Part shown: positions 9,881 to 50,908 of the stretch, one piece after another | How the letters are laid out: every line of letters starts with the position of its first letter | Numbering within the stretch: position 1 is the first letter of the stretch | Origin: Syntrophales bacterium | Lineage (GTDB): Bacteria > Desulfobacterota > Syntrophia > Syntrophales > UBA2210 | DNA: 64,000 nt | Assembly: GCA_963664485.1 (NCBI GenBank) | Contig: OY761459.1 | Coordinates: forward strand, 155,098-219,097 | Direction: 5' to 3' | The notes under the pieces: generated by a model | What the model saw: only the letters and a program-made list of their open reading frames with translations | Told to the model about the DNA's origin: nothing | The model's database searches: none | Program-made: the position numbers and the translations under genes

Positions 9881-9898
9881 GTCTTTATCACCCTGTGC

Positions 9899-11851: not shown

Positions 11852-11886
11852 CCGCTCAGACAAGCTATATTCGGCAGTCTGCCTTG

Positions 11887-12699: not shown

Positions 12700-12702
12700 A
12701 GC

Positions 12703-13644: not shown

Positions 13645-13645
13645 A

Positions 13646-13829: not shown

Positions 13830-13871
13830 TGAACAGCGAGCGAATAAAAAAGGATAGTAAGCAGGGACTTT

Positions 13872-14801
13872 CTATCTTTTAAAGTAGGTTATTGTTTTCT
13901 TCAGTCCTTCTTCGAGATCGATCTCCGGTTCCCATCGGAGTCTTTCTTTTGCCAGGGTGATATCGGGGCGGCGGTGCATAGGATCGTCCTGCGGCAGCGT
14001 GCCGAAAACGATTTTCGATTGCGACCGTGTTAATTCTATGATTTTTTCGGCCAGCTCCAGCATGCTGAATTCGCCGGGGTTTCCCAGGTTCACAGGACCG
14101 GTGAAATCACCCGGCAGGTTCATCATCCGGATTATTCCCTCGACCATGTCGTCGACGTAGCAGAATGACCGTGTCTGGGTTCCGTCTCCGAAGACGGTAA
14201 TATCGCTGTTATTCAGGGCATGGACTATAAAATTGCTGACTACCCTTCCGTCGTCCGGGTGCATTCTCGGACCGTAGGTATTGAATATTCTTACTACCCT
14301 GATATCCACGTTGTTCTGCCGGTGGTAGTCGAAAAAGAGGGTTTCGGCGCAGCGTTTACCCTCGTCGTAGCAGGACCGTATCCCTATGGGGTTTACATTA
14401 CCGCGGTAGTCTTCGGTCTGCGGGTGAACGGTCGGATCTCCGTAAACTTCGCTGGTGGATGCCTGGAGAATCCTGGCTTTCACCCTTTTCGCGAGCCCCA
14501 GCATGTGGATGGCGCCCATGACATTGGTCTTGACGGTTTTTACCGGGTTGTACTGGTAATGGATCGGCGATGCGGGACATGCCAGGTTGTATATCTGGTC
14601 GACTTCGAGAAAAATAGGCTGCACCAGGTCGTGGCGTATCAGCTCGAAATTGGGTTTTCCGAGAAGATGATTCACGTTTTCCTTCCCGCCGGTGAAGAAG
14701 TTGTCGAGGCACAGGACATCGTGGCCCTCTTCGACCAGCCGGTCGCACAGGTGGGAACCGAGAAATCCGGCTCCGCCGGTAACTAGAATGCGATTTTTCA
14801 T
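13872..14801 (-). CDS. UDP-glucuronic acid decarboxylase (UDP-xylose synthase-like SDR)
   Basis: [44 protein letters not shown]. Confidence 0.93.
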
Positions 14802-14816
14802 GATTTTATTCCTTAA

Positions 14817-15011
14817 GGGTCCAAGGATTCAAGGGGTCGAAAGATAAAGGGGTCGAGGATTCAAGGATCCTAGGGGTCGAAAGGTAAAGGGTTCAAGGAT
14901 TCGAGGATTCAAGGGGGCGAAAGCATCAAAGGCCAAGGATCCGAGGGGGCGAAAGTTAAAGGGGCCAAGGATTCAAGGATCCTAGGGGTCAAGGGGTCAA
15001 GGGGTCAAGGG
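14817..15011. repeat. Degenerate octamer tandem array (family B, G-rich on + strand)
   Basis: ggattcaa/ggggtcga/gggttcaa units; overlaps the four-helix-bundle stop codon. Confidence 0.92.
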
Positions 15012-15368
15012 TTTATTTTCTAGAGATTTTATCAGTGCTTTCAGCATTCTTTCGTTTTCCGCTATGTCCTCTTTCAGTTTATCCAATGCATCTTTCTCGA
15101 TTAAGTTTAAATCCCCTGCCAGCAATATCTGCGTTTCCAGTTCGCAAACAGAACCGTAAGATATATAAAGCATCCTGATGTAATCCAGGGTTGTTTTTCT
15201 TCCGTATCCTTCCGCTATATTGGAAGGGATAGACACGGCGGATCTTCTTATCTGGGAAGTCAGGCCATAAAGTTCTTCCTTTGGAAATTTTGCCGTTATT
15301 CTATATACTTCCAGACATAGTTCGTACGACTTCCGCCATACCTTCAACTCTTTAAAGTTCTTCAGCAA
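14997..15368 (-). CDS. Four-helix-bundle protein (23S rRNA IVP / bAvd-like)
   Basis: F.ELKVW.KS..L...VY.IT..FP.EE.YGLTSQIRRSAVSIPSNIAEG.GR. Confidence 0.93.
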   Translation of the reverse strand: MLKNFKELKVWRKSYELCLEVYRITAKFPKEELYGLTSQIRRSAVSIPSNIAEGYGRKTTLDYIRMLYISYGSVCELETQILLAGDLNLIEKDALDKLKEDIAENERMLKALIKSLENKPLTP

Positions 15369-15375
15369 TCCGCTT

Positions 15376-15532
15376 GGCCCCTTGAACCCCTTATCTTTTG
15401 CCCCCTAGACCCCTCGAACCCTCGGCCCCTTGGACCCCTTATCTTTTGTTCCCTAGACCCCTCGAACCCTCGGCCCCTTGGACCCTTTATCTTTTGTTCC
15501 CTAGACCCCTTGAATCCTAGACCCCTCGAATC
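15376..15532. repeat. Family B octamer array (C-rich on + strand), 48-bp higher-order period
   Basis: ttgaaccc/tcgaaccc/ttggaccc units; ttatcttttg recurs every 48 bp; includes the last codons of fcl. Confidence 0.92.
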
Positions 15533-16577
15533 CTTTCATATACCATTCGTACGTCTTCCGTATCCCTTCTTCGAGCGCGGTAGCGGCCTTCCAGCCTTTG
15601 CTCCGAATCCGGGAGAGGTCGAGCAGTTTTCGCGGTGTCCCGTCGGGTTTGGTGTCGTCCCATTCCATCCGGCCTTCGTAGGCGGTGATCCTGGACACCA
15701 TGTTCGCGAGATCCAGTATCGTGAGATCTTCGCCCGTACCGATATTGACGAATTCGCCTATTTCGTTCGCGTCATAGTTCTCCATGAGAAGAACAGCGGC
15801 GGCGGCCATGTCGTCGGCATAGAGAAATTCTCTCCTCGGCGCCCCGGTTCCCCATAGGGTGAGGCTGTCGGGGTAGATGCCGAATCCTGAGAGGTGTTTC
15901 GTTATCTGGCCCGGGGTACGGGGCGAATCGACCGGCAGGCCGTTACCGAATCGCTCGAGGTCGTGCCGGATGGCATCGTAATCCCCCCTGAAAAGGAGTC
16001 CGGCCAGGTGAAACCTGCGTATCATCGCGGGCAGAACGTGGGAAGTTTCGAGATCAAAATTGTCGTTCGGGCCGTAGAGGTTTGTGGGCATGACGGAGAT
16101 GAAATTCGTCCCGTATTGTTCGTTGTAATACCTGCACAGTTTTATCGCCGCTATCTTCGCTACGGCATACGGTTCGTTGGTCGGTTCCAGGGCGGACGTC
16201 AGAAGATATTCTTCCTTGAGGGGTTGAGGGGCTTCCCGGGGATAGATGCACGACGAACCGAGATTCAGGAGTTTTTTGACTCCATACGCATGGGAAGCAT
16301 TGATGACATTCGCCGCGATCATTATGTTTTCATAGATGAACTGCGCCTTGTATGTACTGTTGGCAAGAATCCCGCCGACCTTCGCCGCGCAGAGAAACAC
16401 ATATTCGGGCCTTTCTCTCTCAAATAAGTCTTCGACATCCTGCTGCCGCGTCAGATCCAGCTCTTCGTGAGACCTGCAGATCAGGCGTTCACAACCCTTC
16501 GCCGCTAGACTTCTCATAACGGCGGAGCCTACCATGCCGCGGTGACCGGCAATATATATCTTAGAGGATAGCATCAT
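15501..16577 (-). CDS. fcl: GDP-L-fucose synthase
   Basis: AGHRGMVGS, AAKVGGI.AN, LGSSCIYP, YAVAK, PTNLYG, SHVLPA, WGTGAPRREF, PDGTPRK. Confidence 0.95.
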   Translation of the reverse strand: MMLSSKIYIAGHRGMVGSAVMRSLAAKGCERLICRSHEELDLTRQQDVEDLFERERPEYVFLCAAKVGGILANSTYKAQFIYENIMIAANVINASHAYGVKKLLNLGSSCIYPREAPQPLKEEYLLTSALEPTNEPYAVAKIAAIKLCRYYNEQYGTNFISVMPTNLYGPNDNFDLETSHVLPAMIRRFHLAGLLFRGDYDAIRHDLERFGNGLPVDSPRTPGQITKHLSGFGIYPDSLTLWGTGAPRREFLYADDMAAAAVLLMENYDANEIGEFVNIGTGEDLTILDLANMVSRITAYEGRMEWDDTKPDGTPRKLLDLSRIRSKGWKAATALEEGIRKTYEWYMKGFEGSRIQGV

Positions 16578-16584
16578 AGGAAAA

Positions 16585-16994
16585 GCAATTTTTAATGTTT
16601 AATTTTTAATGGTTAATTAAAAAACTGAAAAACAAAAAGATAATTGCAAAAAATTATCACAAAAACCTCAAGGGCAATTTTTAATGTTTAATTTTAAATG
16701 ATTAATTAAAAAACTAAAAAACAAAAAGATAATTGCAAAAAGTTATCACGAAAACCTCAAGGGCAATTTTTAATGTTTAATTTTTAATGGTTAATTAAAA
16801 AACTGAAAAACAAAAAGATAATTGCAAAAAATTATCACAAAAAAAGGGCAATTTTTGATGTTTAATGTTAAATGGTTAATTAAAAAACTAAAAACAAAAA
16901 GATAATTGCAAAAAATTATCACAAAAACCTCAAGGGCAATTTTTAATGTTTAATTTTTAATGGTTAATTAAAAAACTGAAAAACAAAAAGATAA
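16585..16994. repeat. AT-rich tandem repeat, 85-89-bp period, ~4.7 copies
   Basis: Units start at 16585, 16674, 16763, 16848, 16936; the full units carry a GATAATT-N6-AATTATC-type inverted repeat. Confidence 0.96.
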
Positions 16995-17039
16995 CTTAAA
17001 AAGATTAAAGGCAAAGCGCAAGATTTTTCTATTGGTTTG

Positions 17040-18044
17040 TTAATAGCCGGCGTCGCGCAGGATTTTTCCCTTTTCTGCCAGTTCAAGGTCGGTTTCTATC
17101 ATCATATCTATCAGTTTATCGAAGGTTACCTCGGGTTCCCATCCGAAGGCCTTCCGCGCTTTGCTCGCGTCGCCCAGCAGCACGTCGACTTCGGTCGGCC
17201 TGAAGTAGCGTTCGTCGATTTCCACGTACCGGCGGTAATCGAGGTTCAGTTTTTCGAAGACGCGTTCCACGAACTCACGGACGGAGTGAGTTTCGCCTGT
17301 GGCGATGACGAAATCGTCCGGCTTGTCGTGCTGCATCATCATCCACATCGCCTTCACGTAATCGCCGGCGTAGCCCCAGTCACGCCTTGCATCCAGGTTT
17401 CCGAGAAAGAGTTTATCCTGCAGTCCCAGCTTGATCCTGGTTGCCGCGGTGGTGATTTTTCGAGTGACGAAGGTCTTGCCGCGCCTCGGCGATTCATGGT
17501 TGAAGAGTATGCCGTTGCAGGCGAATATATTGTATGCATCGCGATAGTTCCTGACTACGTAGTATGAATAAACCTTCGCGGCGGCGTAGGGACTCCGGGG
17601 CTGGAACGGCGTAAGCTCGTTCTGCGGGGGCGGAGCCGCTCCGAACATTTCGCTGGACGAGGCCTGGTAGAATCGCGCCTTGATACCGGTTTTCCTGATC
17701 GCCTCGAGCAGTCTGATCGTACCCAGTCCTGTGATGTCGCCTGTATATTCGGGAGTGTCGAAGCTCACCCTCACATGACTCTGGGCGCCCAGGTGATATA
17801 TTTCATCCGGCTTGATGTCGTAAAGCAGGTTGGTCAGGTGGGCGGATACGGATAGATCGCCGAAATGGAGATACATCCGCGCGTCGGGATCGTGGGAATC
17901 CCGGTAGAGATGATCGATGCGGCCGGTGTTGAAGGTGCTGGCCCTCCTGATAAGGCCGTGCACCTCGTATCCCTTGTCCAGAAGGAATTCGGCAAGGTAT
18001 GAGCCGTCCTGTCCGGTAATCCCGGTAATAAGCGCTTTTTTCAT
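17040..18044 (-). CDS. gmd: GDP-mannose 4,6-dehydratase
   Basis: [50 protein letters not shown]. Confidence 0.97.
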
Positions 18045-19075
18045 GCAGCATACCTCTCAAGATACCATTCTACGAATTTTTTTATTCCCTCTTCTATCGT
18101 CGTCGAAGGTTTAAATCCCGTGTCTTCGGTAAGACCTTTCACGTCGGCGAAGGTCGCGGGGACGTCGCCAGGTTGAAGAGGAAGCATGTTCTTTTCCGCC
18201 TCGATGCCGAGGACGTCTTCCAGGGTTTCGATAAATCTCATCAACTCGACGGGATTGTTGTTTCCGATGTTGTATATCCGGTAAGGCGCGAAGCTTGTTC
18301 CGGGGTCCGGCCTCTCGCCGCTCCAGGCTGGATCCGGCGCCGGTATCCGGTCCATTATCCTGACGACACCCTCGATTATGTCATCGATATAGGTAAAATC
18401 TCTCCTCATCATGCCGTGATTATAGATATCTATCGGTCTTTTGTTGAGAATCGCGTCGGTGAAAAGGAAAAGGGCCATGTCGGGCCTTCCCCAGGGACCG
18501 TATACGGTGAAGAACCGCAGGCCGGTGCAGGGGATTTTGTAAAGGGACGCGTAGGAGTGCGCCATGAGTTCGTTAGCTTTCTTTGTGGCGGCGTACAGGC
18601 TTACCGGGTGATCTACGTTCTGATGGACCGAGAAGGGCATCGCGGTGTTCGCGCCGTAGACGGAACTGGACGAGGCAAATACGAGATGCGGCACGTTCGC
18701 GTGACGGCATCCTTCGAGAATGTTGATAAAGCCGGAAAGGTTGCTGTTCACGTACGCGTGGGGATTCTCGAGGCTGTAACGCACACCCGCCTGTGCGGCC
18801 AGGTGAACAACGCGGTCGAATACGTGACCGGCGAAGAGCTGTTCCATTCCCTCCCGGTCGGAAAGATCGAGGCGGATAAAGGTGAATTTTTCGCAGGGCC
18901 TGAGGATATCTAGGCGGTCCTCTTTCAACCTTACATCATAGTAGCTGTTGAGGTTGTCGATGCCGACGACATGGTGACCGTCGTTCAAGAGACGCCTGCA
19001 CAGGTGGAAACCGATGAAACCCGCGGCACCGGTAACGAGAATACAATTTTGGATTTTGGATTTTGAATTTTTAAT
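18041..19075 (-). CDS. UDP-glucuronate 4-epimerase-like NAD-dependent epimerase; start codon uncertain
   Basis: [38 protein letters not shown]; the frame extends upstream of the track start through [11 protein letters not shown] with no in-frame ATG/GTG/TTG (ATT at 19075). Confidence 0.88.
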
Positions 19076-31308: not shown

Positions 31309-33237
31309 ATGAGTAAAATTATAGGAATCGACCTTGGGACAACAAACTCTTGTGTCGCTGTAATGGAGGGAAACGATCCTAATGTCATAGCAAACCAGGA
31401 AGGCAGCAGGACGACGCCATCGGTCATCGCTTTTACGGACAGCGGTGAACGTCTGGTCGGGCAGGTTGCCAAACGACAGGCGGTAACCAATCCTGAAAAT
31501 ACCGTTTACGCGGTGAAGAGGCTGATAGGAAGGAAATTTTCGTCCAAGGAAGTTCAGTACGATATCACTATCAGCCCGTTTAAAATCACAGAGGCTTCGA
31601 ACGGCGATGCACAGGTAACTATAAAAGGTAAAAATTACAGTACGCCGGAGATATCTTCGATGGTGCTGGCAAAAATGAAACAGACTGCCGAGGATTATCT
31701 CGGAGAAAAGATAACCGACGCGGTCATCACGGTTCCGGCCTATTTCAACGATTCGCAGAGACAGGCGACAAAGGATGCCGGAAAGATAGCCGGTTTGAAC
31801 GTTCTCCGTATCATAAACGAACCGACGGCAGCCGCGCTCTCATACGGTCTCGACAAGAAGACCGATGAAAAGATCGCCGTGTTCGATCTGGGAGGAGGAA
31901 CATTCGATATCTCGATCCTCGAACTGGGCGGCGGCGTTTTTGAAGTCAAATCGACCAACGGCGATACACACCTGGGCGGTGAGGATTTCGATCAGAAATT
32001 GATAGACTATATAGCGAATGAGTTCAAGAAAGATCAGGGGATCGATCTCAGAAACGACAAGATGGCGCTTCAGCGCATCAAAGAGGCGGCTGAAAAGGCG
32101 AAAATGGAGCTTTCCACGTCCATGGAAACGGACGTGAACCTGCCCTTTGTTACAGCAGACGCATCCGGCCCCAAGCATCTTAATATGAAACTTAGCAGGG
32201 CCAAACTGGAAATGCTTGTTTCCGACCTTATAGAAAAACTCGCGCCTCCGTGCAGGACCGCATTGAAGGACGCGGGCCTGAGCACTTCGGACATAGACGA
32301 GGTTATTCTTGTAGGTGGTATGACGCGCATGCCCCTCGTACAGAGAACGGTCAAGGAGATATTCGGCAAAGAGCCCAGCAGGGGGGTAAATCCGGATGAG
32401 GTGGTTGCCGTGGGAGCGGCTATCCAGGGCGGTGTGTTGTCCGGTGATGTGAAAGACGTACTCCTTCTCGATGTAACGCCGCTGTCTCTCGGTATAGAAA
32501 CCCTGGGAGGCGTCATGACAAAGCTGATCGATAAGAATACCACTATCCCGACAAAAAAGAGCCAGACGTTTTCCACGGCCGCGGACAACCAGCCCGCGGT
32601 GAGCATACACGTCCTTCAGGGAGAAAGGTCGATGGCGGCTGATAACAGGACACTGGGAAGGTTCGAGCTTAGCGGTATTCCGCCGGCTCCGCGAGGACTT
32701 CCGCAGATCGACGTTACCTTCGACATCGACGCTAACGGTATCGTGCACGTTTCCGCCAAGGACCTCGGGACAGGCAAGGAACAGAGTATAAAGATTACCG
32801 CTTCCAGCGGACTTTCCGAAGCAGAGATAGACAAACTGGTTAAGGACGCCGAGTCGCACGAGGAAGAGGACAAGAAGAAGAAGGAATTGATCGAGCTGAG
32901 GAACCAGGCCGACTCCATGATATACAGCGTCGAAAAGAACCTGAAGGAGATGGGAGACCAGATAGACGCCGGCCAGAAGTCCGCCATAGAGGATTCCATC
33001 GTCAAGCTCAAGAAGGCAATGGAAGGTGATAACATCGATGCCATAAAGGCGGCTCAGGAAGAGATGACGCAGGCGTCTCATAAACTGGCTGAAGCCATGT
33101 ACGCAAAGGCAACCAGCAAAGGCGCCGAAGGGGCTGGAGCGGCCGGGGCAGGTGCTTCCGGAGCAGGCGCACAGGCCGAATCGTCTCAGTCCGACGATGA
33201 CGTGGTGGATGCCGATTTCGAGGAAGTCGACAAATAA
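31309..33237 (+). CDS. dnaK: Chaperone DnaK
   Basis: [45 protein letters not shown]. Confidence 0.99.
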
Positions 33238-33570: not shown

Positions 33571-33945
33571 ATGAATCGTAACGCGTTATCCTTGAGGGCA
33601 TATATCTTCTGCCTCGTATTGTGCTTTTCCGCTGTTTTCCTGTGGCATTCCGAGGCCCGGGCGCACGGTCCCGAACAGGTTATACCGTCCTATTATACGG
33701 ACTCCGGCACTTTGAGCGTGGTGATTCATCATCCTGTATCGAATCCCCGAAAACACTATATCAAAAGCGTGTCAATCACAAAGAATGCGGCACCTGTTCT
33801 AACCCAAACGTACACGGACCAGCCTGAGTCTTCGCCATTTACTTACACGTATTCAATAACGGCAAAAGCGGGAGATATACTGAAGGTAAAGGCCGACTGC
33901 AGCTATTTCGGATCAAAGACGGGAGAACTTACCGTCGACAGATAA
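33571..33945 (+). CDS. Exported protein with desulfoferrodoxin/SOR-like His/Cys motifs
   Basis: Signal peptide ARA|HGP, HHPV, HYIK, A.CSYFG; AGGAG RBS. Confidence 0.6.
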   Translation: MNRNALSLRAYIFCLVLCFSAVFLWHSEARAHGPEQVIPSYYTDSGTLSVVIHHPVSNPRKHYIKSVSITKNAAPVLTQTYTDQPESSPFTYTYSITAKAGDILKVKADCSYFGSKTGELTVDR

Positions 33946-33985
33946 ACACCTTTCAGACCGACGATCGAAGGCGGGGGGGACGTCT

Positions 33986-34378
33986 ATGATCATCATCCAT
34001 GCAGCTTTAATGCTCACAGGTTTTTTCTCTGCGGCCGCGGGTATCGGCACGGCGATGTTCATGAGAGACAAACGATGGTGGCTTCGCGTTCACCGACGGC
34101 TCGGGTCGGCGGCGGTCATGTGCGTCCTTATCGGATTTGGGACGGCGCTGATAATGGTTTCCCTGAAGGCGAACCGGCATTTCGGCGTACCGCACGCCTG
34201 GCTGGGACTCGCCGTGATTCTGTCCGTCCTGTGCACATATGTTCTCGGAGTCACACAGCTGAAGAGAAAAACGGCAAGAATGAGATCCTTGCACCGGTGG
34301 TCGGGACGCATAACATTCGTATTGATTTTTTTCAATGTACTGTCCGGATTGACCCTGACCGGAATCCTGCCGGTATGA
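33986..34378 (+). CDS. 4-TM cytochrome b561-like membrane protein
   Basis: Four hydrophobic helices with His5, His36, His70, His103 (W.R.H, HAWLG, HRWSGR). Confidence 0.65.
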   Translation: MIIIHAALMLTGFFSAAAGIGTAMFMRDKRWWLRVHRRLGSAAVMCVLIGFGTALIMVSLKANRHFGVPHAWLGLAVILSVLCTYVLGVTQLKRKTARMRSLHRWSGRITFVLIFFNVLSGLTLTGILPV

Positions 34379-34731: not shown

Positions 34732-35343
34732 ATGGACGTTTTGATTGTTTACTATTCGATGTATGGACATATCAACCGTCTTGCGCAGGCAGTCGCCGAA
34801 GGCGTCAGAGAGGTCGACGGAGCAGAAGCGATTCTTCGCAGGGTCCCGGAAACGCTTACGGAGGAAGTGCTCGGAAAGATGGGGGCTCTCGAGGCGCAAA
34901 AAGCGTTCGCCGATGTTCCGGTATGCAGGATTGACGAACTCGGATCGGCCGATGCCGTCATCTTCGGAACCCCGACACGATTCGGTAACATGTGCGGTCA
35001 GATGCGCCAGTTTCTCGATAAAGCCGGAGGTCTCTGGTCGAAAGGCGCCCTCGTCGGGAAGGTTGGAAGCGTATTTACCAGTTCAGGGACTCAGCACGGA
35101 GGACAGGAATCGACGATCCTCGGTTTTCATGTCAACCTCCTGCACATGGGAATGCTCGTGGCGGGACTGCCCTACAGCTTTGAGGGTCAGTCACGAAACG
35201 ACGAGATAACCGGCTGTTCCCCATACGGAGCATCGACAATCGCCGGCAGCAGCGGAGAGCGTACCCCAACGGAAAACGAACTGGCGGGTGGGCGTTTTCA
35301 GGGAAGGTACGTCGCTACTATCGCCGCGAAACTGACACGGTGA
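34732..35343 (+). CDS. wrbA: NAD(P)H:quinone oxidoreductase WrbA
   Basis: YYSMYGHI, GTPTRFGNM, QHGGQE.T, SPYGASTIAG. Confidence 0.95.
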   Translation: MDVLIVYYSMYGHINRLAQAVAEGVREVDGAEAILRRVPETLTEEVLGKMGALEAQKAFADVPVCRIDELGSADAVIFGTPTRFGNMCGQMRQFLDKAGGLWSKGALVGKVGSVFTSSGTQHGGQESTILGFHVNLLHMGMLVAGLPYSFEGQSRNDEITGCSPYGASTIAGSSGERTPTENELAGGRFQGRYVATIAAKLTR

Positions 35344-35458
35344 TTCTCTGTCCGCAAAAGGGAATCCGCCGCGAAACAGATAATCAGTATTGTAAGCCGC
35401 AGCCGATTATTGTCTGTACAGTACCCGGAAACCGGGCGCGGAAAGTGAGGTGCATGAT

Positions 35459-35680
35459 ATGGCTGACATAAAGATAGATGTACGCGGGGAAACATGCCCG
35501 GTACCCCTGGTAGAAACCCGCAAGGCGCTGCGAAAGGCCTCTCCAGGGGATACCTTAGAAGTAACAGGTACACACCCTGCTTCCAAAAAAGAGATACCGA
35601 TGGCCCTGAAAGCGCTGGGGCTCAAAGATCCGGAAATAGAGGAAGAAGGAGATGTGTGGAAGATCAGAGTAAGTATCTGA
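35459..35680 (+). CDS. TusA/SirA-family sulfurtransferase
   Basis: IDVRGETCPVPLV (CPxP). Confidence 0.9.
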   Translation: MADIKIDVRGETCPVPLVETRKALRKASPGDTLEVTGTHPASKKEIPMALKALGLKDPEIEEEGDVWKIRVSI

Positions 35681-35698
35681 CGGAAAGGCGGTGCGCAC

Positions 35699-36118
35699 AT
35701 GACCGATAAAGCAACCATCGTGGTTCACGGCGGGGATATGGATAAACTGTACAGCGCGCTGATCATATCTGTCGGCGCATTATCGATGGGTATGGAGGCG
35801 TCTTTATATTTCACCTTCTGGGGCCTTGAACGCCTTATCAAGGGAAAACTGGAGGGGGGAACCTTATCCAGGATGCACATGCTGGGTATCGGGAAATGGA
35901 TGGTTAGACGCCGGATGAAAGCCGCCAACGTGGCATCGCTTGAAACGCTTCTCCGGGACTTCAAAGAACTGGGAGGAAAGATCATCGCCTGCGAAATGAC
36001 AATGCAGATCATGGGTATAAAACGGGAGGATCTTCGGCAGGATCTGATAGACGAGTACGGAGCCGTGGGTACTTACATAGAGGAGGCTCGAAACTCGAAA
36101 ATAACACTGTTCATATAA
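35699..36118 (+). CDS. DsrE/DsrF/DrsH-like (DrsE_2) protein
   Basis: LYFTFWGL, IIACEMTM.IMG, GAVGTY, TLFI. Confidence 0.88.
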   Translation: MTDKATIVVHGGDMDKLYSALIISVGALSMGMEASLYFTFWGLERLIKGKLEGGTLSRMHMLGIGKWMVRRRMKAANVASLETLLRDFKELGGKIIACEMTMQIMGIKREDLRQDLIDEYGAVGTYIEEARNSKITLFI

Positions 36119-36130
36119 GGAGAAACCGAT

Positions 36131-37312
36131 ATGATTGCGAAAACCGTTTATCTTGACAACGCTGCCGCCACCCGTATGGACGAGAGAGTGCTGGATGTTA
36201 TGACGCCCTATTTCTTCGAGACCTACCCGGTCGCGACCTCGGAGTTCGGCTACTCCCTGGGAATAGATGCACGTGAGGCCCTGGAAAAAGCCCGTAAAGA
36301 GATAGCACAGTACATCGGAGCCGGCAGCGAGGAGTTCATCTTCACTTCGGGAAGCACGGAATCCAGTAACCTGGCACTAAAGGGGGTGGCGCTGGCTCTA
36401 GGCGAAAAGAAAGGCCGGCATATTATCATCTCCGCCATCGAAGATTTCCCGGTACTCCACAGTGCCAAAGCGCTCGAAAAGTACGGGTTTCCGGTCACCT
36501 TTCTGGAGGTGGATCATGAAGGCCTCGTCGATCCCGGCAAACTGGAAAAAGCGATAACCGGCGAGACAATACTCGTTTCCATACAGCACGCAAACCAGGA
36601 GATCGGAACGGTCCAGGACATTGAAACGATAGGCGGCATATGTCATGACAAGGGGGTTCTTTTTCATACGGACGCCACGCACACTTTCACGCGGATGCCC
36701 CTGGATTTTCAAAAGATGAAGGTGGACCTGATTACCGTCTCCCCACACACGATCCATGGCCCCAAAGGGATAGGAGGACTTTACGTCCGCGAGGGAACGG
36801 CGATAAATAAATGGATGGACGGCGGATTCCAGGAGTTCAACCTCAGGGCCGGGCTGGAGAATATTCCGGGTGCCGTGGGTTTCGCCAGGGCGGTATCACT
36901 GGTGACGCCAGAGGAAAACGAACGGATCAGGCTGATGCGCGACCATCTTATCGACCGAGTTTCAGCCGAAGTTCCCGATACTATCCTCAACGGGCACCGC
37001 TCGCAAAGAATCCCGCAAAACGCAAACATCACCTTTCACTCCGTGGAGGGAGAATCCATCACCCTCCATCTGGATATGCGTGGTTTTGCCGTCAGTACAG
37101 GCTCCGCCTGTTTCAGCCGTTCGCTGGAGGCTAGCCACGTTATCATGGGTATAGGGGGGGATCACGAGCGGGCGCACGGGTCTATTCGTTTTACCTTCAG
37201 CCGTTACAATACAATGGAGGAAGTGGATGCGGTGACAGACGCGATCACCGAAGTAGTAAGTCAATTAAGGATAATCAGCCCACTGGGTAACAAGAAGGAG
37301 GTCCGGAAATGA
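36131..37312 (+). CDS. IscS/NifS-fold protein lacking the PLP Schiff-base lysine
   Basis: YLDNAA.T, FTSG.TES.N, NQEIGT.Q, SPHTIHGPKG (Lys to Thr), STGSAC retained. Confidence 0.9.
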   Translation: MIAKTVYLDNAAATRMDERVLDVMTPYFFETYPVATSEFGYSLGIDAREALEKARKEIAQYIGAGSEEFIFTSGSTESSNLALKGVALALGEKKGRHIIISAIEDFPVLHSAKALEKYGFPVTFLEVDHEGLVDPGKLEKAITGETILVSIQHANQEIGTVQDIETIGGICHDKGVLFHTDATHTFTRMPLDFQKMKVDLITVSPHTIHGPKGIGGLYVREGTAINKWMDGGFQEFNLRAGLENIPGAVGFARAVSLVTPEENERIRLMRDHLIDRVSAEVPDTILNGHRSQRIPQNANITFHSVEGESITLHLDMRGFAVSTGSACFSRSLEASHVIMGIGGDHERAHGSIRFTFSRYNTMEEVDAVTDAITEVVSQLRIISPLGNKKEVRK

Positions 37313-37944
37313 CATTTCCATACAGCGAAAAGGTGCTCGAACACTTTAAAAATCCGCGCAACGTAGGCAAAATCGAAAATCCTGACGGCAATGCCATGGA
37401 AGGTAGTCCGGCATGCGGAGATATGGTGGGGGTTCACATCAAGGTCGATCCCGACACAAAACGTATTACCGATATCAAGTTCGAATCCTACGGCTGCGCT
37501 TCCAATATAGCCACCGGATCCATCATCACTGAACTCGCAAAAGGGAAAACCATTGATGAGGCAAAGAAGATCAACTGGAAGGAGGCCTCGGATGCTTTGG
37601 GCGGTCTCCCGCCGATCAAGACCCACTGCTCCGTTCTGGCCGTAGAAGGATTGCGCTCGGCCATACAGAATTACGAAGAACGTCACGGTCTCGTCACTGA
37701 ACAGAAACCGACCACCGTGGAAACTATCCGCAAGCGCCTCAAAAAGGTGATGAATCCGCTATCCGGCCTTGATCTGGTTCGTACGGAGTTGATAAAGGAT
37801 ATAGCGATAGACAAGGGAGTTGTTCATATCAAGGTAGATCTCCCTTCCAATCACCAGTTCGCCAACAATATAAGGGAGGAAATCGGGGATAAGATAGAGC
37901 CCCTCTGGGATGTCGAAACTGTCGAAGTAGAATTTCTGAAATAG
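37309..37944 (+). CDS. IscU/NifU-like scaffold fused to a DUF59/FeS_assembly_P-like domain
   Basis: YSEKVLEHF.NPRN.G, ACGD, YGC, K.HCS; ~75-aa tail LKKVMNPLSGLDLV...V..VEV. Confidence 0.88.
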   Translation: MTFPYSEKVLEHFKNPRNVGKIENPDGNAMEGSPACGDMVGVHIKVDPDTKRITDIKFESYGCASNIATGSIITELAKGKTIDEAKKINWKEASDALGGLPPIKTHCSVLAVEGLRSAIQNYEERHGLVTEQKPTTVETIRKRLKKVMNPLSGLDLVRTELIKDIAIDKGVVHIKVDLPSNHQFANNIREEIGDKIEPLWDVETVEVEFLK

Positions 37945-38207
37945 ATTCCAGACGGAATAATCGATGTTTTCATGCAGCCCGTGAAGATATCTTTCCCGCC
38001 AATTAGTGGAGCGACGACGCACATACGGAAAAGGCGGGTACCGGCGGAGGAACGGTTCATGTACGTATCGAGGTTTATCCGGGCGCCGCAAAAGAAAGAC
38101 TAAACAGCTGGATTCGAGGACTTTCTTTCACTACACCCTGACCGGTTGGTTGAGGTAAGTGCGGTTATGGTTTCATGAGCATGCTGATCCTCTCGGACCG
38201 CCGTATA

Positions 38208-38549
38208 TCAGCCGATTGCACCAGGTCCCGTTTCCATGGAACTGATTCGGACGCAATCGTCCATGGGAACAATAAATATCTTGCCGTCACCGATACCACC
38301 TGTATGAGCACCTTTTATCAAGGCATGGACCGCCGGTTCTACAAAATCATCATTCACGGCAATCTCCAGCCGTGTTTTTTTCAACAGGTTGATATCCGGG
38401 GTAAGACCCCGGTATGATTCCGTATAGCCTTTCTGGCGACCGCACCCCAGGGAGTTGGTAACCGACATGCGAAAGATACCGGCATCGGAGAGTGATCGTT
38501 TTACGTCATCCAGTTTTTCCGGTTTTATATATGCTACAATCAATTTCAT
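38208..38549 (-). CDS. glnK: P-II nitrogen regulator
   Basis: MKLI.A.IKPEKL, G.GRQKG.TE.YRG, TG.IGDGKIF; follows an amtB remnant. Confidence 0.9.
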   Translation of the reverse strand: MKLIVAYIKPEKLDDVKRSLSDAGIFRMSVTNSLGCGRQKGYTESYRGLTPDINLLKKTRLEIAVNDDFVEPAVHALIKGAHTGGIGDGKIFIVPMDDCVRISSMETGPGAIG

Positions 38550-38877: not shown

Positions 38878-39038
38878 TGCAAAACCGTTCGACGGCTTTA
38901 GAATATAAACAAATGATAACAATAAGTTAAACAGAATTTAAGCGACGGGATCAATCCGGATCAGAATCGCATGGATTCGACATTGAGGAAACTTCAGGAA
39001 AAATAATCCTACAGAAATGTATGTTTTCGCTTTCCGTT

Positions 39039-39316
39039 CCGGTCAGAAGTCCGCTATAGAGGATTCCATCGCCGAGCTCAAAAAGGCCATGGAAGGCGAT
39101 AACGCCGATGCCATAAAGGCGGCCCAGGAAGACATGACGCAGGAGGCGTCGCATAAACTGGCTGAAGCAATGTACGCAAAGGCAACAAGCAAAGGAGCCG
39201 GAGAAGCGGGAGCGGCCGGTGCGGGAGCTTCCGAAGCAGGCGCACAGACTGAATCGGTCCAGGCCGATAACGATGTGGTGGATGCCGATTTCAAGGAAGT
39301 AAACAAAGATTCGTAA
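39039..39316 (+). pseudogene. Duplicate of dnaK 3' end
   Basis: Colinear with 32969-33237 ([10 protein letters not shown]...VVDADF.EV), with substitutions and a one-codon insertion. Confidence 0.93.
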
Positions 39317-39596: not shown

Positions 39597-40475
39597 CTAA
39601 TCTTTCCAGTGACTTAACTCTAGCTTGCTGAGTTTTTCTACTTTATAATGATCATCTTGGAAATACCTATTAAAATACCTCTGCCTTTCTCCCTGAGAAA
39701 GAATTAATTTATTATCTGTCGTGTATAAATTGAGAATCTTTTCTCTTAGATTCATTCTAATATTTTTCGGAATGATTATTTTTAGTATCTTTTTGTTTTT
39801 GTTTCTAGATTGTAAATATCTTGTAAACAAATTTGATTGATATGAAAAAGCTTTATTGCTGTGTATATTAGAATTCAATTGCATGACCTCCACCCCCAAA
39901 AAATTTTGAATTCTGATTAATGTTTCAGGTAAGTTTTCGACAATATCCGTGTCAAAATCGAGAAATAGGAACTGCTCCTCAGGAAAGAATCTGAAGTACC
40001 TTTCTATTTGAACCGAGTAATACCCCCTACTGAAATAACTATAATGCCCAAACTCAAAATCTCCTCTTTGGATTCTTATCTTTTCTTGAGCAATCGCTTC
40101 CTCAAATGTCAAATTTTCGTATAATCGTCCCTTTGTCATATTATAGTGTGAAACAGCTCTATCAATGGGTTGTCTTAATACAAAAATAAATTTGGTATCT
40201 GATCCCAAATCATTAAAAATCCGTTTTGGAACTTTGGGATAAAAACAATAACTAGCCGTAAATGAACCCGCAATTAATTCATCCTTGTATTCTGAAAAAA
40301 ATTCTTTATAAAACCACTCCAATCTATTCAAATATAGATTGTCGACATCAAAATAATGGGTTTCTTTTCTAAATGGGAGATAAATATCGGGATGCTCTTT
40401 TAAAATATCATGCAGGGTTGTCGTGCCTGCTTTTTGAGTGCCAATACAGAAGAATTTAATATTTGGTTTTTTCAT
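39597..40475 (-). CDS. Sulfotransferase
   Basis: IGTQKAGTTTL (PAPS loop), KETHYF, LRQPIDRAVSHY. Confidence 0.9.
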   Translation of the reverse strand: MKKPNIKFFCIGTQKAGTTTLHDILKEHPDIYLPFRKETHYFDVDNLYLNRLEWFYKEFFSEYKDELIAGSFTASYCFYPKVPKRIFNDLGSDTKFIFVLRQPIDRAVSHYNMTKGRLYENLTFEEAIAQEKIRIQRGDFEFGHYSYFSRGYYSVQIERYFRFFPEEQFLFLDFDTDIVENLPETLIRIQNFLGVEVMQLNSNIHSNKAFSYQSNLFTRYLQSRNKNKKILKIIIPKNIRMNLREKILNLYTTDNKLILSQGERQRYFNRYFQDDHYKVEKLSKLELSHWKD

Positions 40476-40930
40476 CTCCATCCAAGAAAGGAACATTCGC
40501 CTAATGCGTATTTCGTTTCATAAATTATTAAAACTCAATATAATACCACCAATGGATAATTCAATAAATCTCTGGTCAGAATTTGAAAACTTGCACAATT
40601 TTAATCTTTTATAATTTGTTCAAACTTGGTGGTTTTCGAAAAAATTACAGATTTTTTTACGTTTTATACGCTTCAATTGTTTTTTACATCCCCTTAACTT
40701 TTTTATGTCTTCATAAAGGAGTGGTTCGGTATTAGATGTCTTATACCACCATCATGATTTTCATTTTTCTTTTTGCCAATACTGTGCTTTCGTGACAGGG
40801 AAGATTACAGGTAGACCTCCATAGAAGAGGGATTTGAAAAAATCATTGCAAAAGACGTAGCATGATTATATAGGCCAAAAAGAGACCGAGTGTCCGGGGA
40901 GGTAATAAGTCTTACACATAAGCTTTTCTT

Positions 40931-46752: not shown

Positions 46753-47712
46753 CTATAACCACTCAGGCAAACGGACATATCCATAATCAGTGAGCAATTC
46801 TTTAAGATTTGATAAATCCTGACGGAAGCAGTGTATAGCTGCCGGATTGACTGCAGGTCCCGGTGCATTAGAGACTTCGGCATTCATCATATGATAGAAT
46901 GATCGCAGTTTGTCTTTTAATCGAGGGGACCGTCGTAACACAACTTCAAATCGTCTGTTAACCCCCGCAGCCCATTGATGCAATAATCGATATCTTACCG
47001 TAATAGCTTTGTTATTTATCAAGAATTGATAATCTTTATACATATCCGGTGAAATGTTAAGCCATTCACATATATCTATCAGGGTTCTTTGAGGATCATA
47101 TTTTAAATCGTCAAAAAAGAGTATCTTGATGTTTTCACTGTCAACGCAATTGAACCAACCGAGAAGATAGTTATAATACAATCCGTATTTAATGCCGCTC
47201 AGATAATATTCACGACTCTGGTCCTCCCGGAACTCATTATAATAAGAATAGGACTGCGCAACATACTCGTCAAAACTCATATCTTTTATAAATTGTTTCT
47301 GCTCAGGTGACACTCTTTCACCATACGCAAAAATATATGAGTTCTTTAAATAATGATAAAATGAAATCAATCGCTCTGCCGGTTCACGTAAAATAAAAAT
47401 AATCTTAAACTCCCCGAGAAGATCTTTCATGGCATCGGCGATTTTTGAGCCTCCGTACATATAACCGGGACTCGCCTCCATTACATACCGGAAATCGTAC
47501 CCTTTCAAATGCTTGAAATAAAACAAATACTCATCGAGCGGAGAGAGTGATTCACCGAATTGTATCGGAATAAAATATCCAAGCTCTTTCTTGCTCGAGG
47601 CTCCAATATCTTCGTGGCCGGCAAGGTATGAAAACAGGGATGTTGTTCCCGCCTTATAAACGCCGCCGATAAAAAGATTGGGGAACACCGAGTTAGTGTA
47701 TGAGGCCATCAA
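46753..47712 (-). CDS. Sulfotransferase
   Basis: PNLFIGGVYKAGTTSL, KE.GYF, EASPGY, LREPAERLIS. Confidence 0.9.
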   Translation of the reverse strand: MMASYTNSVFPNLFIGGVYKAGTTSLFSYLAGHEDIGASSKKELGYFIPIQFGESLSPLDEYLFYFKHLKGYDFRYVMEASPGYMYGGSKIADAMKDLLGEFKIIFILREPAERLISFYHYLKNSYIFAYGERVSPEQKQFIKDMSFDEYVAQSYSYYNEFREDQSREYYLSGIKYGLYYNYLLGWFNCVDSENIKILFFDDLKYDPQRTLIDICEWLNISPDMYKDYQFLINNKAITVRYRLLHQWAAGVNRRFEVVLRRSPRLKDKLRSFYHMMNAEVSNAPGPAVNPAAIHCFRQDLSNLKELLTDYGYVRLPEWL

Positions 47713-48643: not shown

Positions 48644-49934
48644 CTGTTTTTTCTTCCAACTCGTTATAAGCCATCAAAATAAAAAGAGAGAGAACGTAGA
48701 CCATTGGACCAAAATAAAAACTCCCCTGGATCGAACGGATAATTGCAAAAACCAGTATGTATTTTAAAGCTTTTATAAAAACATTCCCTTTTTCGGGAAC
48801 GCGTCTCAATATTTTAATGGAAATGATAACAGGGATAATGAGCACAAAAACAAGCCCCGGGATTCCATACAAAAACAATCCACCGAGCACTCCAATATCG
48901 CAAGGATAAAAATGACCGAACAGGGAACGGTACCCATCATTCCATCGGTTACTGATTCTGCCGACACCAAGCCAGGCGCTTAACGGGTGGGTATCAAAAT
49001 AACTCAGAACCTTTTTACTTTGGAAAATCCTGCTGTTGGCTGACGGATCTTCTGACAGCTCCCCGGAAAGAACTTTAAACGATTGCAGAAAAAGATGGCT
49101 CGTGCGGTCCAGATAGCCAGGCTTTAGCGCGTGAATAACAATGAGCGCAATGAGAAGAAAAAGAGAAAATTTTATTAATATAATCGGAATCCTGCTTAAC
49201 GAATAGTTAAAGAATATGTAAAGTAAAAAGGTAAACGCCAGCGCTATAGTGCAGGTCCGGCTCTGGTGGACAAAGAGCACATACGATAAAAAAAATAGAA
49301 ATATGACAATGTATTTATGATTTATATACAGAGTATATTTTACGAAATAATAGAGAGCGCCAAAAATAATAAAATACATTTGAAATCTAAAACGTAACCC
49401 GCGATTAGCATCCATGTAAACGAATTTAGACTGAAAATCGAGTTGGCCGGGGTTATAGAACAATACTAAGAGAGAAAAAATCACCAGCGAAGCCCATGCC
49501 ATGAAGACAAATGTAGACTCAACGGTATCAAGGTGTATCTTTCGTGTAACAACTACATAATAGAACCATACCCCTACTCCTATAAGCAGCCATGAGCGCT
49601 CAGATAAAAACCCGTAGATAAAAGGTTGTCCAAACTCAGTGCTTCCCCGGAACATGCTGTAAAGAGGGATAATGGATATGAGTATCAAAAAATAGAGAAC
49701 AATTTCGTTGATAGAATCTCCTCTACGTACTGTAAGAACAACGTAACTAACGAGAAAAATAGCTATTACGACAAGGAAGACAGCTTGAAATTGGAAGAAA
49801 ATACGTTCAAACGGAGTAGACTGGAAAAATTCCAGCGTGAATATCAAAACAGTTGCTATGAGCAGAATTTGACCAATTTTTGCTGTATTAATATATTTGA
49901 GCAGTGTATCTTTGTTTCCAGTGAGCTTAATCAT
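48633..49934 (-). CDS. Polytopic membrane protein, probable Wzy polymerase
   Basis: About 10 TMs, HQSRT, LGVG; position in the EPS operon. Confidence 0.65.
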   Translation of the reverse strand: MIKLTGNKDTLLKYINTAKIGQILLIATVLIFTLEFFQSTPFERIFFQFQAVFLVVIAIFLVSYVVLTVRRGDSINEIVLYFLILISIIPLYSMFRGSTEFGQPFIYGFLSERSWLLIGVGVWFYYVVVTRKIHLDTVESTFVFMAWASLVIFSLLVLFYNPGQLDFQSKFVYMDANRGLRFRFQMYFIIFGALYYFVKYTLYINHKYIVIFLFFLSYVLFVHQSRTCTIALAFTFLLYIFFNYSLSRIPIILIKFSLFLLIALIVIHALKPGYLDRTSHLFLQSFKVLSGELSEDPSANSRIFQSKKVLSYFDTHPLSAWLGVGRISNRWNDGYRSLFGHFYPCDIGVLGGLFLYGIPGLVFVLIIPVIISIKILRRVPEKGNVFIKALKYILVFAIIRSIQGSFYFGPMVYVLSLFILMAYNELEEKTDVD

Positions 49935-50908
49935 ACTGACACGTTCCCGTTAATTGCTTCTTTGTCCATAATAGTTTTGTCATTTCTAGTATAAAACGGT
50001 TTTATATCCTCACCGATAATATCCAGTATGATGTTCTGTTTTTCCTTTGGAACTTTGCTTTTCCATACATCGACCAACGCCTTGCTGTTTCTCACAAAAT
50101 CATGTTCTTTCCCATTTAAGCTCTCTGCATATAAACCATGGGATGTTGTATCGACATAGCTCCTCATGCGTGAGGTAAAACACACTCCCAACCATTTACA
50201 TATATGATCTATTTCAGCTTCTGGTTTCATGCACAGGTCTTCGTGGCGAACGAGCAGAAGATTGTTGTCTTTTTTGCTGATAGATGTCACCAGCCTGCTC
50301 ATTATTTTCCAGAGTAGGGCAGTAGAGGTAAGATTATCACCCTTGGCTTTCTCCCATAAATGCTCAGAAATTCCAAACCCATAATCATTTAACAGTTTTT
50401 TTTGCCTTGTGAGATTGCTAATGTCAAAAGACCAGTTTTGCTTGCTCACACTATGATAATGAGCACAAGGATGGCGAATCATGCATACAATTTTCATGTT
50501 GTAAATTATGGAAAGATAGTCAATCATAAAAGTGCAGAAAGGATCTTTCCATATCACATGATCAGGTGTCATTCGTAGAAATTGAAGAAGTTTCAACCTA
50601 TTCCATTGTAAATGCCTTTCCCCTCCAAAAAGCTTATACCCGGTTTTTCGCCAGCCGGATTTGGTTGATACGGGTTTGGAAAAACTGCCTTGAAACAGTA
50701 ATGCCTTTTGAAGAATCTCTTCGGCATACGAAGATGCATCTTCCGCCCTCCAATAGGTATAACGAGGAGGCGCATATTCCAAGCCCCAAACATCGTTGAA
50801 TGGTTCGTAGATCACAGAGGTTGAATGTGACAATGATAAAATACGACCGATATAGGTGGTACCGCTTCGATGGAGGCCGCAAATAACACCTGTATTTGTT
50901 TTTTTCAT
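49931..50908 (-). CDS. Sulfotransferase
   Basis: GLHRSGTT, YEPF, KDP, IRHP....S, VRHEDL. Confidence 0.85.
   Translation of the reverse strand: MKKTNTGVICGLHRSGTTYIGRILSLSHSTSVIYEPFNDVWGLEYAPPRYTYWRAEDASSYAEEILQKALLFQGSFSKPVSTKSGWRKTGYKLFGGERHLQWNRLKLLQFLRMTPDHVIWKDPFCTFMIDYLSIIYNMKIVCMIRHPCAHYHSVSKQNWSFDISNLTRQKKLLNDYGFGISEHLWEKAKGDNLTSTALLWKIMSRLVTSISKKDNNLLLVRHEDLCMKPEAEIDHICKWLGVCFTSRMRSYVDTTSHGLYAESLNGKEHDFVRNSKALVDVWKSKVPKEKQNIILDIIGEDIKPFYTRNDKTIMDKEAINGNVSV

Follow-up and report, generated by a model that had tools for sequence, protein, structure and literature searches.

How is an iron-sulfur (Fe-S) scaffold protein supplied with sulfur when the IscS homolog encoded next to it lacks the Schiff-base lysine? 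This question is raised by a four-gene operon, tusA-dsrE-iscS*-iscU::DUF59, located in a stretch of 64,000 nucleotides from a Syntrophales bacterium (GenBank assembly GCA_963664485.1, contig OY761459.1, positions 155,098 to 219,097; the whole stretch is called the window, and coordinates refer to it). IscS* denotes the Lys-less homolog and the cassette denotes the four genes. A sequence-only reading of the window had suggested a repurposed IscS in a possibly desulfurase-independent relay for Fe-S clusters or sulfur. Our analysis showed that the cassette is a real, selected and mobile module. It is strongly conserved and common to many anaerobic bacteria and archaea, and therefore represents an uncharacterised mobile variant of the Fe-S machinery and not a decaying gene. 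The four genes are as follows.

35459-35680, + strand: tusA, encoding a TusA-family sulfur carrier of 73 amino acids with a single cysteine, Cys13, in CPVP (Pfam PF01206, 6.3e-21).
35699-36118, + strand: gene for a DsrE2B-like sulfur carrier of 139 amino acids with a single cysteine, Cys98, in ACEMTM (PF13686, DrsE_2, 5.7e-33).
36131-37312, + strand: iscS*, encoding a protein of 393 amino acids with the class-I IscS/NifS fold and Thr207 at the position of the Schiff-base Lys (Aminotran_5, PF00266, 1.4e-69).
37309-37944, + strand: iscU::DUF59, encoding a fusion protein of 211 amino acids and 23.4 kDa (NifU_N, residues 5-126, 1.9e-43; FeS_assembly_P/DUF59, residues 138-207, 9.7e-14).

The genes share one strand and are separated by gaps of 18 nt (tusA and the dsrE-like gene) and 12 nt (the dsrE-like gene and iscS*), while iscS* and iscU::DUF59 overlap by 4 nt (ATGA), an arrangement consistent with translational coupling. 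The tusA frame is also open from a GTG at 35450, and the Shine-Dalgarno-like run GTGAGGTG precedes the in-frame ATG at 35459, the start that had been given before. Both persulfide carriers reported upstream of iscS* were found, TusA with Cys13 and the DsrE-like protein with Cys98 as their only cysteines. IscS* contains Cys171 and the loop Cys327, and the only cysteines of IscU::DUF59 are its three cluster ligands. A promoter and terminator scan of 35200-38300 gave nothing above shuffle expectation, and nothing on the + strand.

All of the IscS motifs quoted in the sequence-only reading (SPHTIHGPKG, ED.PV, DATH, RAGLEN and GSAC) are present in 36131-37312. Residues 204-213 read SPHTIHGPKG in IscS* against SAHKIYGPKG in the canonical IscS of the same genome; likewise IEDFPV stands against VEHHAV, DATH against DAVQ and RAGLEN against RAGTEN, and GSAC with Cys327 is kept. 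The family was represented by the 120 nearest database proteins (75-96% identity) and the best 80 of 442 relatives from genomes (65-85% identity), with one genome per species. When its members were aligned together, the Schiff-base Lys was absent from 199 of 199. The position is occupied by Thr in 77 of 79 genome loci (Ser and Ala once each) and in 118 of 120 database proteins (Pro and Ile once each). Close orthologs with the Lys, as they would be expected under lineage-specific decay, were therefore not found (0 of 199), and a chance origin of the substitutions is excluded because the same ones recur in all 199 homologs.

The family was compared with 131 canonical rows, which carry the Lys by selection (130 of 150 representatives and the IscS of the own genome). 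Residues N35, H104, M151, N155, Q183 and K206 of E. coli IscS are replaced by V, D, Q, Q, H and T, each in 98-100% of the family. D105, Q156 and H184, which stand for E. coli H104, N155 and Q183, are present in 100% of the family and T207 in 98%. The position of E. coli T243 is L, I, V or M (L242 in IscS* of the window). We take H104, N155, Q183 and T243 of E. coli IscS to be contacts of the cofactor pyridoxal 5'-phosphate (PLP). Since IscS* has lost the Schiff-base Lys and most of these contacts, it probably cannot form persulfide from cysteine by itself, and both PLP chemistry and desulfurase activity appear to have been lost. The loop Cys C327 together with D181 and R353 (E. coli C328, D180 and R354) is conserved in 100% of the family, and the loop motif STGSACFS was found in 110 of the 120 nearest database proteins. 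IscS* scored below every NCBIfam equivalog cut-off of this kind; with the NifS model, for example, it reached 432.5 bits where 530.75 are required, and with the IscS model 379.8 bits where 548 are required.

The predicted structure agreed with a class-V aminotransferase fold. The AlphaFold2 (AF2) model of IscS* had a predicted local distance difference test (pLDDT) score of 79, and Foldseek gave template modelling (TM) scores of 0.86-0.92 to NFS1, Archaeoglobus fulgidus IscS and E. coli IscS. Confidence in the monomer was low only in segments 34-42, 230-242 and 326-347, which line the active site in the dimer.

The missing catalytic Lys and the missing PLP ligands are what would be seen in an iscS paralog on its way to loss. 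However, the frame of 393 codons is intact, and the ratio of nonsynonymous to synonymous substitution rates (dN/dS) against six Syntrophales orthologs was 0.06-0.10 for iscS*, while the remaining three genes gave 0.04-0.12; dS was 0.9-1.7 and thus near saturation. Purifying selection acts on the cassette genes. Together with the uniform state of 199 of 199 members, the 65-85% identity in both domains of life and the 4-nt overlap with the next gene, these data refute decay, to which we give practically no probability, and the pseudogene reading was rejected. The invariant replacement residues and the low dN/dS instead bear out the earlier proposal of repurposing. Apparent internal stops in some orthologs were also dismissed, as they are natural stop codons overrun by the tblastn alignments.

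A tblastn search with the four window proteins showed that tusA-dsrE-iscS*-iscU::DUF59 is colinear in 67 of 80 loci, and at least three of the 13 non-colinear loci are cut contigs. The 80 records include 53 bacterial and 26 archaeal ones. They belong to Chloroflexota (29), Methanobacteriota (16), Thermodesulfobacteriota (8) and other groups such as Thermoplasmatota, Nitrospirota, Actinomycetota, Atribacterota, Heimdallarchaeota, Bathyarchaeota and Hadarchaeota. Among these best 80 of 442 relatives, IscS* identity across Bacteria and Archaea was 65-85%, far above the conservation of canonical IscS. Within a library whose sequences had been clustered at 50% identity, essentially one cluster represented the family (67% identity, 574 bits), and the next match reached 442 bits at no more than 51% identity. 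A fifth conserved gene was not found, since clustering of the flanking open reading frames (ORFs) of 81 loci gave no other family present in more than 10 of them.

The distribution is patchy. In the order to which the window belongs, a member of the IscS* family was detected in eight of 151 sampled genomes, seven of them among the 12 genomes of the window's own taxonomic family and one among the 139 elsewhere. In the family containing Methanolobus it occurred in 32 of 61 sampled genomes (65-71% identity), and in Methanobacteriaceae in 21 of 81 genomes. The cassette of the window is bracketed by a direct repeat of about 270 nt formed by two copies of a dnaK 3' end.

32966-33237, + strand: dnaK 3' end, first copy of the repeat (by alignment).
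39036-39310, + strand: dnaK 3' end, diverged second copy, in the ORF 39017-39316 (by alignment).

The two copies have a mean column identity of 85% over the whole alignment of 414 columns, and flank about 5.8 kb with orf124, a cytochrome b561-like gene, wrbA, the cassette and a P-II gene. The bracketed genes are all missing after dnaK in two genomes of the same genus, one of which has the cassette on another contig. The patchy distribution, the dnaK-bracketed site and the same-genus genomes without the genes at this site point to horizontal spread.

The repeat resembles an insertion at the dnaK 3' end; no integrase was seen. The genes orf124, for the cytochrome b561-like protein and wrbA are common upstream of the cassette only to a few Syntrophales loci. 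At 33571-34378 of the window, orf124 (with a signal-peptide-like N-terminus and no Pfam match) precedes the gene for the cytochrome b561-like membrane protein of 130 amino acids, and the same two genes lie upstream of the cassette in several Syntrophales loci (L011, L012, L031).

How the Lys was lost could be followed by phylogenetic analysis. The Lys is missing in 20 of the 150 nearest IscS representatives. Trees were calculated with FastTree (153 rows) and with IQ-TREE in quick mode (70 rows). In both, the IscS* family formed a tight clade, with support of 99-100 in the Shimodaira-Hasegawa-like approximate likelihood ratio test (SH-aLRT), apart from the A. fulgidus-type Lys-less proteins. 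The representatives of the latter type (P0143 with Asp, and others) also grouped separately from the clade partnered with IscU::DUF59. A metagenome scan for intermediates was seeded with the nearest outgroup, P0124. Relatives with 50-56% identity displayed the gene order iscS, iscU::DUF59, tusA, dsrE; examples with Lys are L125, L131, L118, L115 and L116, while L122-124, L130, L113 and L114 have Leu. Read at E. coli IscS positions 35, 104, 151, 155, 180, 183, 205, 206 and 243, the active-site signatures were as follows.

Canonical IscS: N-H-M-N-D-Q-H-K-T, partner plain IscU.
Intermediates (typical): V-H-Q-Q-D-(Q/L/Y)-H-(K/L)-T, partner IscU::DUF59 where the contig reaches it.
IscS* family: V-D-Q-Q-D-H-H-T-L, partner IscU::DUF59.

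The IscU::DUF59-partnered clade (32 rows of the 70-row tree, SH-aLRT 95) included 12 rows with Lys and 20 without. Over the whole 70-row tree the Lys label requires eight changes, at least seven of which are forced by well-supported branches. All examined rows of the clade had V34, an F39 insertion, Q152, F328, R330, H345 and N360, and most had Q156, H209 and H313. Residues Y41, D105, F106, H184, T207 and G343 are specific to the IscS* family and were not seen in the Leu-type Lys-less relatives, whereas a hydrophobic residue at 242 is common to the family and only two Leu-type relatives. The loop Cys was never lost among the IscU::DUF59-partnered relatives. The own order held no intermediates among those sampled, as 10 of 10 next-best IscS sequences (47-52% identity) were fully canonical, with plain IscU where the partner was seen.

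Since the same partners also accompany relatives with the Lys, the neighbourhood existed before the Lys was lost. The loss arose several times inside the IscU::DUF59-partnered clade, so the association is with that clade, and PLP chemistry was repeatedly dispensable there. The phylogeny thus indicates that the partnership with IscU::DUF59, TusA and DsrE came first, and that PLP chemistry then became dispensable several times with retention of the loop Cys. An association of Lys loss with the tusA-dsrE-iscU::DUF59 neighbourhood, which had been proposed for testing in other genomes, therefore holds for gene order (67 of 80 loci) but not as a strict coupling, as the neighbourhood predates the loss.

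A separate Lys-less IscS lineage was observed on metagenome contigs (L154-L160). It has AADQFYGPKG, with Gln for Lys, Asp for H205 and Val for R354, and is encoded beside plain IscU. In three of five loci with room, a weak TusA-like ORF (24-31% identity) lies downstream, which suggests that Lys-less IscS and TusA-type carriers have been associated more than once.

Which functions do the partner proteins retain? In TusA, the Cys and both Pro of CPxP are invariant in 43 of 43 aligned homologs, and across the cassette loci 71 of 72 TusA homologs have the CPxP motif and 71 of 72 DsrE-like proteins have ACxMTM. The nearest structure to the DsrE-like protein is 2qs7 (8.7e-18), with the active Cys aligned. 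PF13686 and the Cys are present, yet the protein scored 60.2 bits against the NCBIfam DsrE2 equivalog cut-off of 210 bits; judged from these matches, it is best regarded as a DsrE2B-like subfamily. The protein of 2qs7 was named DsrE2B by Tanabe 2024 (PMC11094781). Relays of sulfur oxidisers (rhd-tusA-dsrE2; DsrE2B, PDB 2qs7) likewise pair a CPxP TusA with a DsrE-type protein of PF13686. The relay of the cassette differs from them in being tied to IscS/IscU and not to dissimilatory sulfur oxidation, in its score below the DsrE2 cut-off, and in its surroundings, as no rhodanese, Dsr or sHdr genes were found near the cassette among the window ORFs or the flanking ORFs of the 81 loci.

The IscU part of the fusion protein (residues 1-126) contains C36, D38, C63, K104, H106 and C107, all invariant in 43 sequences, and scored 154.7 and 127.7 bits against IscU/NifU models and 66.2 bits against SufU. 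The DUF59 part (PF01883, about residues 138-207) reached 51.9 bits against a cut-off of 23.5 and has no Cys in the window protein. The description of an IscU with all of its cluster ligands, fused to a Cys-less DUF59 and overlapping iscS*, was thus accurate. The linker and DUF59 are Cys-free in 69 of 72 homologs. In TTHB138 and TM0487, two DUF59 proteins of solved structure, the Cys aligns with the near-invariant His182 of the fusion, with weak pairwise E-values (0.29 and 0.53). The AF2 model of the fusion had a pLDDT of 90.6 and a predicted TM score of 0.83. SufT/DUF59 factors likewise contain PF01883; all SufT homologs analysed by Mashruwala 2016, however, have a conserved (hyper-reactive) Cys, where the cassette DUF59 has the near-invariant His. 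A U-type scaffold N-terminal to DUF59 (the 'S5' architecture) was recorded in five proteins (Mashruwala 2016).

These partners might also serve purposes other than de novo cluster building. The operon would then traffic sulfur for thiolation (tRNA, molybdenum cofactor or thiamine), its IscU domain having a role like that of the sulfur-transfer protein SufU, or else it would store or carry clusters. TusA and DsrE-type proteins of other systems take part in thiolation and in dissimilatory relays (Shi 2010; Tanabe 2024, PMC11094781), DUF59 proteins are accessory maturation factors (Mashruwala 2016), and both a canonical IscS-IscU pair and a SufB-like scaffold are present in the own genome in any case. 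However, the scaffold residues of the IscU domain are invariant, its scores against the IscU/NifU models far exceed that against SufU, and no thiolation enzyme was found among the conserved neighbours in the flanking ORFs of the 81 loci. We consider this explanation very unlikely.

The surfaces with which IscS meets its partners are kept. E. coli IscS contacts IscU via helix 309-316 and E347, and K103 of IscU is needed for binding (Shi 2010). The corresponding helix of IscS*, EGESITLH, and E346 show 91-100% conservation, which is complete at seven of these nine positions, and K104 of the IscU domain (E. coli K103) is invariant. The E. coli TusA-IscS complex has the salt bridges R27-E49 and R31-D52 and a stack of IscS W45 on TusA F58 (Shi 2010). 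At E. coli positions E49, D52 and R55 the IscS* family has E (99%), D or E, and R (100%). TusA R21 and R25 correspond to E. coli R27 and R31; the former is R in 43 of 43 sequences and the latter R in 39 and K in four. In place of the two aromatic residues of the stack, IscS* has Ile (96%) and TusA has Ala or Ser. The E. coli IscS-TusA pair (Shi 2010; PDB 3lvj, 3lvl) therefore shares with the cassette the fold, the salt-bridge residues of both partners and the IscU-docking helix, but lacks its replacement of the stack. It also differs in that its IscS, an active PLP enzyme, is the sulfur donor of TusA, whereas IscS* presumably cannot generate sulfur.

Prediction of a complex between the IscS* dimer and TusA gave a median interaction prediction score from aligned errors (ipSAE) of 0.56, against 0.02 for the best control, with at least 71% of contacts in agreement between runs and a partner pLDDT of at least 83. 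The mark applied to this score is reached by 58 of 80 solved complexes and by two of 110 mismatched pairs, and at 0.60 or below by only seven of the 80 and by both passing mismatches. Since the E. coli IscS-TusA complex (3lvj) is solved, the pass may reflect likeness only. The prediction thus lends weak support to a complex of the IscS* dimer with TusA.

The likeness of the DsrE-type protein to DsrE2B, the uptake of sulfur from polysulfide by TusA and DsrE-type (DsrE3) proteins, which pass it on (Tanabe 2024, PMC11094781), and the kept interfaces lead to a relay running from DsrE over TusA and Cys327 of IscS* to IscU. We therefore propose as the best explanation that the operon is a thiol-to-thiol sulfur relay ending on an Fe-S scaffold and organised round a non-catalytic IscS* platform, and regard this as about equally likely to be right or wrong. 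IscS*, which keeps the fold, the IscU-docking helix, the TusA-binding helix and the mobile loop with its invariant Cys327, would be the platform. TusA (Cys13) and the DsrE2B-like protein (Cys98) would carry sulfane sulfur, with DsrE passing it to TusA. TusA may dock on IscS* as E. coli TusA does on IscS, with sulfur flowing in the opposite direction from TusA persulfide to Cys327 and on to the cysteines of IscU. If IscS* is unable to generate sulfur, the flow must be reversed in comparison with E. coli or be fed from elsewhere. Cys327 may in addition be the fourth ligand of a nascent [2Fe-2S] cluster, as in A. fulgidus (IscS-IscU)2, and the fused DUF59, with His for the usual Cys, probably assists in delivery of the cluster to client proteins. 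The primary source of sulfur would lie outside the cassette, being either a housekeeping Lys-bearing IscS or sulfane sulfur or sulfide from the habitat.

Several observations weigh against this proposal. Members of the IscS* family are known only as sequences. In two Methanobacterium metagenome-assembled genomes (MAGs; L068 and L087) tusA, dsrE and iscS* are present, but iscU::DUF59 was not found within 4 kb downstream. One of the three complex runs scored only 0.16. A ligand role of Cys327 is drawn by analogy, because the IscS* family lies outside the A. fulgidus clade. The Methanosarcina acetivorans protein IscS1, discussed below, formed inclusion bodies in E. coli (Deere 2020, PMC7585200), and an E. 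coli ISC/SUF mutant was not rescued by A. fulgidus iscS2U2, not even when Na2S was supplied (bioRxiv 10.1101/2024.03.20.586028). The remaining points, concerning the pocket of IscS* and the presence of other desulfurases, each favour a different explanation.

R353, D181, T76, S204 and H206 are retained at 83-100% in the family, and an empty pocket would not obviously need them. The former PLP pocket of IscS* might instead have been rebuilt for another ligand or a metal, such as Fe(II) held by D105, D181, H184 and H206, with a new activity in iron donation or in persulfide or sulfide handling. The invariance of the replacements D105, Q156, H184 and T207, the complete retention of D181 and R353, and the retention of H206 and T76 at 95-96% are explained by a rebuilt ligand site no less well than by an empty pocket. 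The restriction of Y41, D105, F106, H184, T207 and G343 to the IscS* family and the high identity across two domains of life would also be in line with a new function. However, the AF2 monomer is of low confidence exactly in the segments that line the pocket, sister lineages with Leu keep the same partners without these replacements, and the strong conservation may reflect recent transfer and contacts with several partners. On balance a rebuilt pocket appears unlikely.

A Lys-bearing IscS was also detected in 11 of 11 cassette genomes examined (the own genome, five complete genomes and five archaeal MAGs), and in nine of them plain IscU lies within the fetched locus of this IscS. In Methanobacteriaceae, a second IscS-type match was found in 20 of 21 genomes of cassette type and in 44 of 60 others (Fisher p 0.058 for genomes that are related and so not independent; matches were counted irrespective of the Lys). 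As all 11 genomes have a Lys-bearing IscS, the cassette need not be desulfurase-independent and may be a side branch of the ordinary pathway. The term 'desulfurase-independent' used in the sequence-only reading is therefore not upheld, since the Lys-bearing IscS, mostly beside plain IscU, could load TusA. Accordingly, the housekeeping IscS may make the persulfide and load the TusA of the cassette, which would then be an extra branch to a specialised IscU::DUF59 scaffold. This explanation shares the relay mechanism with our proposal and differs only in the source of sulfur. Besides the co-occurrence, Lys-bearing relatives with the same partners speak for it, as the ancestral module would have had its own desulfurase feeding TusA and IscU. 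However, co-occurrence is weak evidence because these groups commonly have a canonical IscS in any event (44 of 60 genomes; 10 of 10 next-best sequences in the own order), and nothing in the sequences points to canonical IscS binding the TusA of the cassette. We regard a supply by housekeeping IscS as possible, though on the less probable side.

The own genome encodes, besides the canonical IscS-IscU pair and the SufB-like scaffold, a third class-V enzyme (L001, C1:738766-742869; ORF 1489-2661), in which the Lys is kept (GHKSLFGPQG). Its ORF overlaps one of 193 amino acids (2658-3239) that starts with a TusA-type CPxP (RGLACPQPV) and is YedF-like by eye. This genome would have, in these two, a second and separate instance of a sulfur carrier paired with a desulfurase-type enzyme.

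The opposite source of sulfur, the habitat, would make the cassette a self-contained, cysteine-free and horizontally moving Fe-S line. TusA and the DsrE2B-like protein would capture sulfane sulfur or sulfide, the pocket (D105, D181, H184, H206 and T207) would bind, for example, iron, and IscS* with IscU::DUF59 would build and deliver clusters with no desulfurase involved. This seems decidedly unlikely; if true, it would be a distinct type of Fe-S biogenesis beside ISC, SUF, NIF, MIS and SMS, of which the MIS system has been studied least according to a 2026 review. The proposal of a relay on a non-catalytic IscS* platform encompasses either source.

How does the cassette relate to systems already known? 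The best solved match to both IscS* (7.4e-98) and the IscU domain (6.5e-40) is A. fulgidus IscS-IscU (PDB 4eb5, 4eb7, 4hvk and 4r5f), for which Marinoni 2012, Yamanaka 2013 and Pagnier 2015 are said to be the original papers. The two systems agree in the fold (TM 0.86-0.92), the absence of the Schiff-base Lys, the kept loop Cys and the adjacent IscU. The A. fulgidus IscS is inactive as a desulfurase and contributes one of its Cys residues as a ligand of the [2Fe-2S] cluster on IscU (Deere 2020, PMC7585200). However, Asp stands for its Lys while His104 and Asn155 remain, compared with Thr, Asp and Gln in IscS*, and IscS* sits in a different Lys-less clade. The crystallised A. fulgidus IscU chain, of 153 residues, matches only the IscU part of IscU::DUF59 (query 5-144). 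The likeness to A. fulgidus that had been drawn before therefore extends to the Lys-less state and the best structural match, but not to descent, as the lineages are separate in both trees.

A probable member of the family is found in M. acetivorans. Its IscS1 (MA0808) has a loop STGSACFS identical to the family motif and is without the essential Lys and PLP-binding residues, and its IscU1 (MA0807) has 24.2 kDa and LPPIK, compared with 23.4 kDa and LPPIK in IscU::DUF59 of the window (Deere 2020, PMC7585200, Table 1 for IscS1). The pair was described there as uncharacterised and clustered with four more genes of unknown function, which were not named. Matched by printed motifs and sizes only, IscS1/IscU1 probably belongs to the IscS* family. 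In its accessible portions Deere 2020 (PMC7585200) described no bacterial members of this type, and it was the only paper found to mention the family. A paper on Fervidobacterium was set aside, as it concerns a SUF system.

What was known before thus comprises the Lys-less IscS from A. fulgidus, M. acetivorans IscS1 noted in passing (Deere 2020, PMC7585200) and five scaffold::DUF59 fusions (Mashruwala 2016), as far as the accessible portions of these papers go. In the literature searched, which left most subscription journals and supplements outside, no description was found of the cassette as such, of bacterial members, of the near-identity across domains or of the graded loss of the active site. 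The loss of the IscS Lys is therefore not an oddity of A. fulgidus but a recurrent, selected outcome in one partner context, in a module that spreads between Bacteria and Archaea. The relatives provide naturally occurring intermediates that grade from Lys-bearing active sites to fully remodelled ones. With its four small proteins, each with one active cysteine, the cassette is a defined test object for the question of where strict anaerobes obtain the sulfur of their Fe-S clusters, be it without cysteine desulfurases or alongside them. It is present in cultivable and genetically tractable methanogens, namely Methanolobus and, judged from motifs in Deere 2020 (PMC7585200), probably Methanosarcina.

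Elsewhere in the window, two polysaccharide or capsule clusters were observed at 39597-63963 and 5042-18988. The former, downstream of the cassette, has a G+C content of 0.38-0.46, compared with up to about 0.53 in the higher stretches of the window. It includes three sulfotransferase genes (39597-40496, 46753-47712 and 49931-50908), two Wzy-like genes, glycosyltransferases, a pyruvyl transferase and an FrhB/FdhB-like ferredoxin protein. Near the start of the window, on the - strand, an AbiEii-type nucleotidyltransferase toxin gene (1088-1876; PF08843, 2.7e-18) is overlapped upstream by an unassigned ORF of 199 amino acids, and the two are probably a type IV toxin-antitoxin pair.

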